Source: Desulfurococcales archaeon (GTDB taxonomy: Archaea; Thermoproteota; Thermoprotei_A; Sulfolobales; NBVN01). From it: DNA of 52,074 nucleotides. This document shows, in pieces, positions 50,306 to 52,071 of the stretch (the stretch's first letter is position 1; each line of letters starts with the position of its first letter). Where the stretch lies: the NCBI GenBank assembly GCA_015521295.1, contig WAOL01000079.1, positions 1 to 52,074 on the forward strand. Reading direction: 5' to 3'. The notes below the pieces were generated by a model. It did not search any database and had not been told where the DNA came from. It saw only the letters and a list, made by a program, of their open reading frames with translations. Position numbers and translations under genes: made by a program.

Positions 50306-50881
50306 GTGGAGATTAAACCAATAATTAAGATTGAGAATATAGTAGCAACAGTCACACTTGACCAGAAACTAGACTTAAACGCCATAGCCCGCTCCGTGCC
50401 TAACATAGAGTATGACCCGGAGGAATTCCCGGGCCTCATACTCAGGCTTGAAAGCCCTAGGCTCACGGCCCTAATATTTAACTCAGGCAAGATGGTCGTC
50501 ACGGGTGCCAAGAGCACTCAGATGCTAATCAAGGGCTTCAAACACATTATGAGGATATTCGTCAGGCACGGCATAATAATAGTGGGTAAGCCCAAGATAC
50601 AGATCCAGAACATTGTGGCTTCCGCGAATCTAGGTGTGGAGATAGATCTTGAAAAGGCCGCATACCTCCTCCCCAACACAATGTACGAACCTGAGCAGTT
50701 CCCCGGGCTAATTCACCGCATGAAGGAACCGAAGGTTGTGCTACTAATATTTAGTAGTGGTAAGATGGTAATAACCGGTGCTAAAAGCGAAGAGGACGTA
50801 CAGAAAGCAGTCTACAGCATTTACGAGAAACTAAAGGAATTAGGATGTGTTAGGGAATCACCGCAGAGCTCGCCTTGGTAA
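50306..50881 (+). CDS. tbp: TATA-box-binding protein
   Basis: Two repeats [46 protein letters not shown]. Confidence 0.98.
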
Positions 50882-51064: not shown

Positions 51065-51131
51065 TGCTGTCAGAGTGAACTGGTGGTCTTCATCCTTAGC
51101 CGTCTAAGGCTGCCCACCTCATCATCCAGCA
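51065..51131 (-). ncRNA. C/D box sRNA D
   Basis: TGCTGg-ATGATGA-ggtgggcagcct-TAGA(D')-cggctaagg-ATGAAGA-ccaccagttcact-CTGA-CAGCA; 5-bp terminal stem. Confidence 0.85.
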
Positions 51132-51178
51132 TAATATATGGGTAAGGGGCAGAAATGTTTTGATGTTTAGTGGAAACG

Positions 51179-51186
51179 TTTTATAT
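51179..51186 (+). promoter_or_regulatory. BRE/TATA promoter with no protein gene downstream
   Basis: GGAAACG-TTTTATAT about 28 nt before the GC-rich structured block. Confidence 0.55.
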
Positions 51187-51212
51187 GGGTTAGTGACTGG
51201 GCTATTTATTGA

Positions 51213-51416
51213 TTAGGGGCGATGGGAGCCGTGCTCCAACCCCATGGGATATAATCTCCTAGATGGAGGCCCCGGCCGTTGGGCTCGATAGTCACCCATG
51301 ACCTTAAGGGGATGAACCTCTGCGGAGTGAGCCCTCTGGGCGAGGTGGAACTCCCTAGGCGCGACCACGAACCAACATAATAAAACGAAATGGAATGAAC
51401 ACCTAGGGAGAAACGA
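51213..51416 (+). mobile_element. Structured element resembling an orphan TnpB/IS607-type 3' end (omegaRNA-like)
   Basis: Hairpins and a 9-bp inverted repeat CTCCCTAGG/CCTAGGGAG; out-of-frame peptides LDGGP, PLGSIVTHD and LWARWNSL recall crenarchaeal TnpB C-termini. Confidence 0.5.
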
Positions 51417-51444
51417 CTAATTAATGAAGCATTACATTACGGCT

Positions 51445-52071
51445 TTAAAGATACTTTTCTTCAGCCTTCATCAGGTGTCTTTGCTTTATGAAGAGTATTG
51501 TACCGAGCACACCCGTAACAGCCCCCGCAGCCGAGGTAAGGGCGGAGACGAATGCTAATGCGGAGTATGGTCTGCTTAACTTAATTATTACGTAAGTATA
51601 CGTGATGTTACATTCCTCGGGTACGGTAACGTTAAGGAATTCAGCACCAGGTACTGTGATGGATGCCGCACCTTGACGTACCTCGGCAATGAAGCTCTTG
51701 TTCGTGCCATATATCGCTACATTAATGTACCTCAAGTTACAGCCAGACACCTTAAGCGTTAAGTTAGTCACGAACGTTTCCACGCCCGCCAATACATCAG
51801 CAGGGGGCATGTTCTTAGGTATTCTTTCTCCGGTAACGATGGGACCTTGTTCTACGAACTTCGTCGTGTATCTTATTTCAGTGGACATAATCGCTAGGGG
51901 TATGGTAATCACTAATAGCGTAAGCCCTATCACCACGAGCTTCTTCCAGTATATGTATGGCGGCTTATTGGATTTCCTTATTGGATACAAAATCTTTGCC
52001 TCAAATGAATAGTGAATTAACAACAATATAAAGAGTATTGGAATCAACGCGACAATTTTATGCTTGCTCAA
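51445..52071 (-). CDS. Membrane protein of unknown function (5' end uncertain at window edge)
   Basis: Hydrophobic N-terminal helices, beta-rich middle with sequons, C-terminal TM helix. Confidence 0.65.
   Translation of the reverse strand: MSKHKIVALIPILFILLLIHYSFEAKILYPIRKSNKPPYIYWKKLVVIGLTLLVITIPLAIMSTEIRYTTKFVEQGPIVTGERIPKNMPPADVLAGVETFVTNLTLKVSGCNLRYINVAIYGTNKSFIAEVRQGAASITVPGAEFLNVTVPEECNITYTYVIIKLSRPYSALAFVSALTSAAGAVTGVLGTILFIKQRHLMKAEEKYL

Follow-up and report, generated by a model that had tools for sequence, protein, structure and literature searches.

A 267-bp protein-less element in a Desulfurococcales archaeon, very probably a non-autonomous IS607-family derivative joining a left-end promoter to an omegaRNA scaffold

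Results

The locus and the limits of the insertion

The window, by which we mean the whole 52,074-nucleotide stretch of contig WAOL01000079.1 (assembly GCA_015521295.1, Desulfurococcales archaeon) that was analysed, carries a short non-coding element between its TBP gene and a 208-aa ORF (Table 1). A C/D-box sRNA-like gene, CUGGAUGAUGAG ... GGAUGAAG ... CUGA, lies on the TBP side, with the element inserted ~20 nt from its 5' end; this stretch is 87-94% identical across the genus and its surroundings diverge, with Rfam returning weak matches to it (sR30, E = 3.2, and sR42, E = 9.4).

Searches with the whole stretch from the TBP gene to the membrane gene located empty sites in two congeners, G001 (contig C87) and G005 (C112), where flanks 85-90% identical to those of the window abut without the element. 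With junctions marked by slashes, the empty site of both reads ...GTAGGGGG/CTAATTAATGAAGCATTAC..., CTAATTAATG beginning right of the junction, and the filled site of the window reads ...GTAAGGGG/CAGAAATG ... GAAACGA/CTAATTAATGAAGCATTAC... The element is an insertion, and since its extent follows from the alignment of the empty site with the window, the span of 51170..51440 given in the initial annotation, whilst describing a real feature, gives way to the limits in Table 1; the terminal ...GGGAGAAACGA at 51406-51416 had been placed correctly. Metagenome contigs from two of the four runs examined (X1 and X2) also join 51128 to 51417 with no element; they belong to a relative, ~9% diverged, that was present in the samples, and so do not show polymorphism inside one population.

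The empty-site target reads GGGGG/CTAATT, such that NGGG stands next to the insertion and adjoins the start of the left end; this is an IS607-like target, putatively doubling as the TAM of TnpB. The core dinucleotides of the window copy are GG on the left and GA on the right, with a right-hand GG in 21 of 23 aligned family members (the terminus being CGG in these, CGA in the window copy, and CTG in locus L018), and the simplest reading of the GA is a G-to-A change at 51416. An internal repeat search finds no terminal inverted repeats in the element, and the empty-site alignment of the window copy shows no target-site duplication beyond the GG core.

Table 1. The element, its parts, its neighbours and its sister copies; positions are those of the window unless a contig is named (G000 denotes this genome)
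Feature	Position	Strand	Remarks
TBP gene	50306-50881		PF00352; one side of the element
C/D-box sRNA-like gene	51068-51129	-	
Left flank, GGGG	51146..51149	+	Target/TAM-like NGGG; last GG (51148-51149) is the left-junction core dinucleotide
Element	51150-51416	+	267-bp insertion
IS607-family left end (LE)	51150..51212	+	Starts CAGAAATG; two imperfect GAAAnGTTTT..TTAGTG repeats
BRE/TATA-like box, GGAAACG TTTTATAT	51172-51186	+	tnpA box of the LE, a presumed promoter; begins 33 nt before scaffold/helix 1
omegaRNA-type scaffold	51213..51416	+	tnpB 3'-end relic and right end (RE)
Helices	51213-20/51240-47, 51225-29/51233-37, 51268-72/51281-85	+	RNAalifold, 23-copy alignment
Helices	51292-96/51344-48, 51308-10/51333-35, 51353-59/51402-08	+	RNAalifold, 23-copy alignment
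Right-junction core dinucleotide	51415..51416	+	GA here; family consensus GG (...GAAACGG)
Putative guide flank	51417..51435	+	CTAATTAATGAAGCATTAC; identical to the sequence beside GGGG in the empty sites of congeners
208-aa ORF	51445-52071	-	No Pfam match; convergent, 3' end faces the element
Other full copies	G000:C63:30335-30604; G000:C91:7649-7916	-; +	91% alike

Homology to full-length IS607-family elements

Relatives carry full-length IS607-family elements, and the final ~60 codons of their tnpB, together with their right end, are homologous to the right ~200 bp of the element (51213-51416). In G005 (C87) and G013 (C2) this homologous stretch is read through by ORFs of 435 and 437 aa, both with PF07282 and each preceded by a Resolvase ORF of ~216 aa, which in the complete one also carries HTH_17. 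A Resolvase ORF followed by a PF07282 ORF is the IS607 arrangement; in these relatives' loci, an ORF of L049 matches PF00239 Resolvase (E = 2.7e-24) and HTH_17, and the downstream ORFs of both L040 and L049 match PF07282. In G013:C2, G023:C3, and G006:C8 the scaffold match lies directly 3' of a match to the TnpB zinc ribbon (PF07282) on the same strand. These Resolvase-tnpA/tnpB parents are found in relatives (G005 and G013), and not in this genome.

The peptide fragments PLGSIVTHD and LWARWNSLGA, which the initial annotation had taken for relics of TnpB C-termini, are real, aligning with ...PLASNATHDP...LWARWNSLE... at the C-terminus of the 435-aa TnpB. Searches by tblastn with relatives' TnpB place residues 379-389 at 51212-51244 and residues 417-427 at 51334-51366 (82% identical) in another frame, the tnpB relic of the window copy being broken into three frames, and the only ORFs inside the element are of 33 and 51 aa. 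The similarity to tnpB 3' ends on which the initial annotation had hung its reading is thus present in both the tblastn matches and the ORFs of relatives, and homology to relatives' elements bears out its assignment of this sequence to an IS607-family element, at the tnpB-3'/omegaRNA end.

Copies in this genome and among relatives

The 301 bases around the element match C91:7656-7916 (79%) and C63:30340-30495 (83%) of the same genome, with more sensitive BLAST and a three-way alignment resolving three full copies that have a left part in common and all terminate in ...CCTAGGGAGAAA(A)CGG. As the three are just 79-91% alike, they do not reflect a recent burst from one master copy. The count of genomic copies, proposed as a check by the initial annotation, is completed by three degraded scaffold fragments, C56:3139-3272, C68:2533-2645, and C57:1504-1552 (nhmmer E = 5.6e-8, 5.4e-5, and 7e-4 respectively), which are signs of older copies. 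The outer flanks of the C63 and C91 copies are contiguous and element-free in G001:C138, G005:C69, and G004:C89, and hence this genome has either additional DNA lying between two direct copies or undergone a rearrangement from one copy to the other. A tRNA-Arg(GCG) gene lies at L002:1377-1454 (G000:C91:7532-7609), ~40 nt upstream of the C91 copy.

A unit of this kind could be a dead remnant of a full-length IS607 element that occupied the site until an internal deletion removed tnpA and the greater part of tnpB. It does consist of its parent's two ends only, with the frame of its tnpB relic broken, and degraded fragments do occur elsewhere in the genome. However, the same architecture of LE and scaffold, together with the junction region, recurs in the three copies here and in many genomes, which places the deletion before transposition, and the other two copies are also missing at the matching site in three congeners. 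We therefore regard a remnant decayed in place as very improbable, since the element moved as a unit.

Matches occur in 23 of 41 genomes (this one and 40 relatives), with up to 18 per genome, and most cover the equivalent of window 51216-51415. The copies of relatives adjoin unrelated housekeeping genes, encoding an aminotransferase, RsmB, TIM, TFX, and a cation-efflux protein. ORFs of 423 and 445 aa beside the L004 and L008 copies, considered as tnpB on the opposite strand, were rejected, with Pfam identifying them as aminotransferase and RsmB methyltransferase.

A pattern scan of genome_contigs returned at least 123 stretches, with 80 loci fetched, 53 of them passing the scaffold HMM and 27 failing. 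Among the matches listed, the passing loci are, to judge by record title, nearly all from Desulfurococcales, Ignisphaera, Thermofilaceae, Acidilobaceae, Sulfolobales-type, and other Thermoproteota MAGs, with two in oddly labelled bins; the listed matches that bear bacterial titles all fail the HMM and were treated as chance. Once duplicates are removed, the scaffold HMM yields 77 stand-alone and 33 tnpB-linked distinct copies among the matches listed, a biased sample that was gathered from BLAST matches and one sequence pattern and whose members are mutually related. Two stand-alone copies of G025 (L008 and L039, on contig C1 near 197 kb and 1,483 kb) are almost identical, LE promoter included, and in this genome of two contigs (99% complete) no match to PF07282 exceeds the cut-off and no cognate TnpB is found, which suggests recent mobility without a resident partner.

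The left end

The LE (~63 bp) is common to all three copies of this genome in the three-way alignment. The motif GG-CAGAAA..TTTATTAGGGT stands immediately upstream of tnpA in the full-length elements of G005:C87 and G013:C2, which start GG-CAGAAAC-TTTTATTAGGGT and GG-ACAGAAAG-TTTATTAGGGT respectively, and this start motif matches window 51148-51195 as well as the left edge of other stand-alone copies. The initial annotation had credited the element with a promoter of its own; the BRE/TATA-like box is indeed there in front of the scaffold, but because the same motif precedes tnpA in full-length elements, it belongs to the transposon's left end and is presumed to be the tnpA promoter. A weak resemblance of the LE box to the scaffold's A-rich loop in reverse complement, seen by eye alone, was dropped.

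Archaeal TATA boxes are centred about 26 nt before the start site, and the position of this one thus predicts a transcription start at, or a few nt before, helix 1. Of the 77 distinct stand-alone copies, 32 have a TATA-like hexamer 31-40 nt ahead of the scaffold, compared with 0-12 in other 10-nt bins and none of the 33 tnpB-linked copies in the same bin, and the motif GGGC[AT]G, with GGG directly ahead of the LE, occurs 57-105 nt before the scaffold in 38/77 stand-alone copies, 5/75 in a control window, and 0/33 tnpB-linked copies; these counts, like that of stand-alone against tnpB-linked copies, are among the matches listed and describe a biased sample of related copies, and so are no proof of selection.

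The RNA scaffold

The scaffold was examined in an alignment of 23 copies, comprising 19 that stand alone, two that lie within a tnpB ORF still intact, and two that follow a broken tnpB relic. RNAalifold yields six helices of 32 pairs in total, with changes on both sides in 15 of the 32 and with helices 1, 3, and 5 varying at nearly every pair. Paired cells amount to 94.5%, against 84.8% in shuffles, and the covariation score is 0.340, against 0.159, with neither value reached in any of 500 shuffles. When the partners are slid by 1-3 columns, the paired fraction falls to 29-55% and the score does not exceed 0.099, a comparison that is biased towards the structure, which was itself derived from the same, mutually related sequences. 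Of the 32 consensus pairs the window copy keeps 31, and of 91 highly conserved columns it differs at 5 (range 0-7 across copies), such that pairing has been kept where the reading frame was lost, as the initial annotation had observed.

U-G pairs are frequent (e.g. 12/23 at columns 11/31) and fit the + strand only, which identifies this as the RNA strand. Folded as a single sequence, the + strand is no better than shuffles (z = -0.49). The - strand folds with z = -2.1, but was rejected as the RNA strand on account of the U-G pairs of the alignment. The earlier description of about 200 nt of structured sequence therefore holds for pairing across the 23 copies, but not for the fold of the single sequence.

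The motifs first listed are present at their places, e.g. GGAAACG and TTTTATAT at 51172-51186 and the GGGG..GGAGC-CGT-GCTCC..CCCC hairpin at 51216-51244, and CCCTAGG/CCTAGGG (51353-51359/51402-51408) does close the A-rich loop. The proposed pairing of GGGCTC (51281) with GAGCCC (51329) has to be redrawn: GGGCTC pairs instead with 51268-51272 in a local hairpin that shows covariation, and GAGCCC closes the next hairpin. The middle hairpin is extended by an 11-nt insertion in the window copy, L002, L004, L005, and L038, and thereby acquires an internal loop of GAUGA/GA (window 51306-51335), with shorter inserts of 8 nt in L041 and 3 nt in L013, L043, and L044; all insert carriers in the alignment are stand-alone copies. 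The loop is present in the arm described earlier as K-turn-like, but hand threading onto the canonical layout gave no paired C-stem, and it is K-turn-like at most.

No Rfam family reaches its gathering score in the window region, and raising E up to 10 gives chance-level matches inside the element. Supported by covariation, the ~200-nt scaffold defines a family of archaeal omegaRNA that Rfam does not contain. That it might instead be an unrelated housekeeping RNA (RNase P, SRP RNA, or a C/D or H/ACA sRNA) which merely resembles a transposon end has almost no likelihood, for whilst its GC-rich helices and K-turn-like GAUGA/GA loop would suit such an RNA, it occurs in multiple copies, is polymorphic as an insertion, and shares homology with the coding sequence of tnpB, and it lacks the Rfam match.

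The putative guide and the search for partners

Conservation among the 23 copies ends exactly after ..ACGG, and a guide would consequently begin at about 51417, close to the 51416 first proposed. The 19-base putative guide has no second full match in this genome (best 14/19) and no exact match in viral_contigs; the search of the spacer against genome and viruses, proposed at the outset, thus found its own flank alone. A 5-nt duplication of ATTAC relative to the congeners and the metagenome contigs lies at window 51431-51435, just past the first 14 bases of the putative guide.

The element stands without tnpB, as the initial annotation had it, with no TnpB of matching kind in the assembly. PF07282 returns sub-threshold matches only, including ribosomal protein L37ae and a divergent TnpB-like ORF of 375 aa, an NF040570 search for a cognate TnpB has no match, and tblastn with cognate TnpB and TnpA finds relics only, all within an assembly (98.4% complete) of 99 contigs, in which repeats often go unassembled. 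Cognate full-length TnpBs are encoded by relatives, with proteins 62-77% identical to that of G005 in G002, G006, G013, G017, G022, and G023, in addition to G005 itself.

The search for tnpB elsewhere in this genome, another check named at the outset, therefore leaves the one divergent TnpB-like ORF, at G000:C72:4485-5609 on the - strand (L025:1405-2532; NF040570 E = 3e-5, PF07282 17 bits). No CxxC zinc finger is visible in it, and no scaffold of the element's family was found beside it. This TnpB-like family is patchy, multi-copy, and includes pseudogenes, occurring in 15 of the 41 genomes searched, and G025 is without it.

The initial annotation had favoured a stand-alone, possibly domesticated guide RNA acting in trans. 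On this reading the host would keep an orphan omegaRNA that works with TnpB, or with a TnpB-like protein whose nuclease is dead, against a target in the cell or in a virus. In its favour are the promoter-like box, a fold that is intact although tnpB is missing, stand-alone copies in genomes without detectable TnpB, such as G025 with its two, and the divergent TnpB-like ORF encoded here. Against this, the locus is an insertion missing in two congeners and no conserved syntenic gene, the many copies sit at unrelated sites, the promoter-like box is that of the transposon's LE, no cognate TnpB is found in the assembly, and the guide is local flank with neither a second full match in the genome nor an exact one in viral_contigs; the divergent TnpB-like family, for its part, has no scaffold beside it and is absent from G025. 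Domestication is not supported, and we consider this explanation highly unlikely.

Discussion

The element is, with high probability, a non-autonomous, protein-less derivative of the IS607 family, MITE-like and 267 bp long, in which a presumed LE promoter is joined to an omegaRNA scaffold. A non-autonomous IS derivative, offered initially as a fallback, is thus the best explanation, and the derivative moved as a unit. It is short, non-coding, and multi-copy, with empty orthologous sites for all three copies in this genome, as is typical of MITEs; the term is used in a loose sense, given the absence of terminal inverted repeats and of a target-site duplication, both of which are as expected for derivatives of IS607.

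The IS607 family, comprising a serine-recombinase TnpA_S, TnpB, and omegaRNA, has been dissected previously (bioRxiv 10.1101/2023.11.20.567912; eLife PMC6188088). The former describes a GG core dinucleotide that TnpA_S of IS607-type elements requires and a preferred TGGG target that equals the TnpB TAM, as well as a clostridial element whose omegaRNA scaffold ends in ..UCGG and mismatched core dinucleotides that abolish excision in E. coli (bioRxiv 10.1101/2023.11.20.567912). Much of this is shared by the element and its relatives: a Resolvase-type tnpA followed by tnpB in the relatives, the lack of terminal inverted repeats and of any duplication beyond the GG core, insertion at NGGG, and a scaffold that ends ..CGG by the guide, with the CGG of the RE end and the GGG of the TAM differing at -3. 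In contrast to the known family, the unit in the window has neither gene, its right core is GA, its scaffold matches no Rfam model, and its hosts are hyperthermophilic and of Thermoproteota type. Given that an IS607-type element with mismatched core dinucleotides could no longer be excised, the window copy may be immobile.

Protein-less elements have also been described for IS200/IS605, where PATE-like elements 'often encode omegaRNAs' that are used in trans (bioRxiv 10.1101/2023.03.14.532601). These likewise keep the transposon ends alone, guide-RNA scaffold included, with transposase and TnpB needed in trans. However, the PATE-like elements belong to IS200/IS605 and involve a Y1 transposase, single strands, and hairpin ends, whereas the unit described here is archaeal and IS607-derived (serine recombinase, double-strand circle), with an LE promoter just before the scaffold.

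A third comparison is with the ~260-nt MITEs of Staphylothermus marinus, reported in 2009 to resemble the region upstream of IS607-family transposase ORFs (PMC2678158). By their published description, in a paper that predates omegaRNA, they agree with our element in length (~260 nt against 267 bp), in being multi-copy, in their IS607-upstream similarity, and in having a host from the same broad archaeal group. They are described there with flanking inverted repeats (PMC2678158), which were not found as terminal repeats in the unit in the window. Among the matches listed by full-text literature searches, none described an archaeal IS607-derived mini-element with a promoter-omegaRNA fusion.

The arrangement of the unit suggests how it may have worked. 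An IS607 TnpA would have moved the mini-element in trans, and the LE promoter would start transcription a few nt before the scaffold and read into the flank, giving an omegaRNA in which the adjoining DNA, from 51417 on, serves as the guide. With a cognate TnpB, this omegaRNA could direct cutting of the empty site (GGGG followed by CTAATTAATG...), and such cutting may favour the element's retention or its restoration by copying. A guide that is local flank is what the TnpB homing model predicts (bioRxiv 10.1101/2023.03.14.532601; 10.1101/2023.11.20.567912), and it thus needs no domestication. In the present genome, given that searches for a cognate TnpB and TnpA found neither, and with GA as its right core, the window copy is most likely a stranded, currently idle passenger.

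A further-reaching proposal, which we advance as speculative and unlikely, is that omegaRNA units with a promoter but no protein are more than debris: selection would maintain them, and they would propagate themselves, as a 'guide-only' form that IS607 takes in hyperthermophilic archaea. Several observations fit it: stand-alone units outnumber tnpB carriers ~2:1 among the matches listed; the ~200-nt scaffold has been kept by compensatory change after loss of the frame; the spacing of the LE TATA box from the scaffold is constant, such that transcription would start at the first helix of the scaffold; one lineage, including the window copy, gained a GAUGA/GA-loop hairpin that a coding tnpB could not carry; and units persist in genomes without detectable TnpB, namely this one and G025. 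Were it true, the units could await the TnpB of an incoming element, or have an RNA role independent of TnpB.

None of the implications of a mobile-element derivative at this locus is surprising to specialists. Because it explains the promoter-bearing structured feature, the latter need not be annotated as a host RNA gene. The locus offers a clean natural example, complete with its empty site, of an IS607 mini-element in which the presumed LE promoter is fused to an omegaRNA scaffold, and adds archaeal cases of IS607 type to the idea that guide RNA and nuclease are separable modules of these transposons, each open to supply in trans. The cognate TnpBs of relatives, together with the scaffold, are candidate thermostable RNA-guided nucleases with a G-rich TAM.
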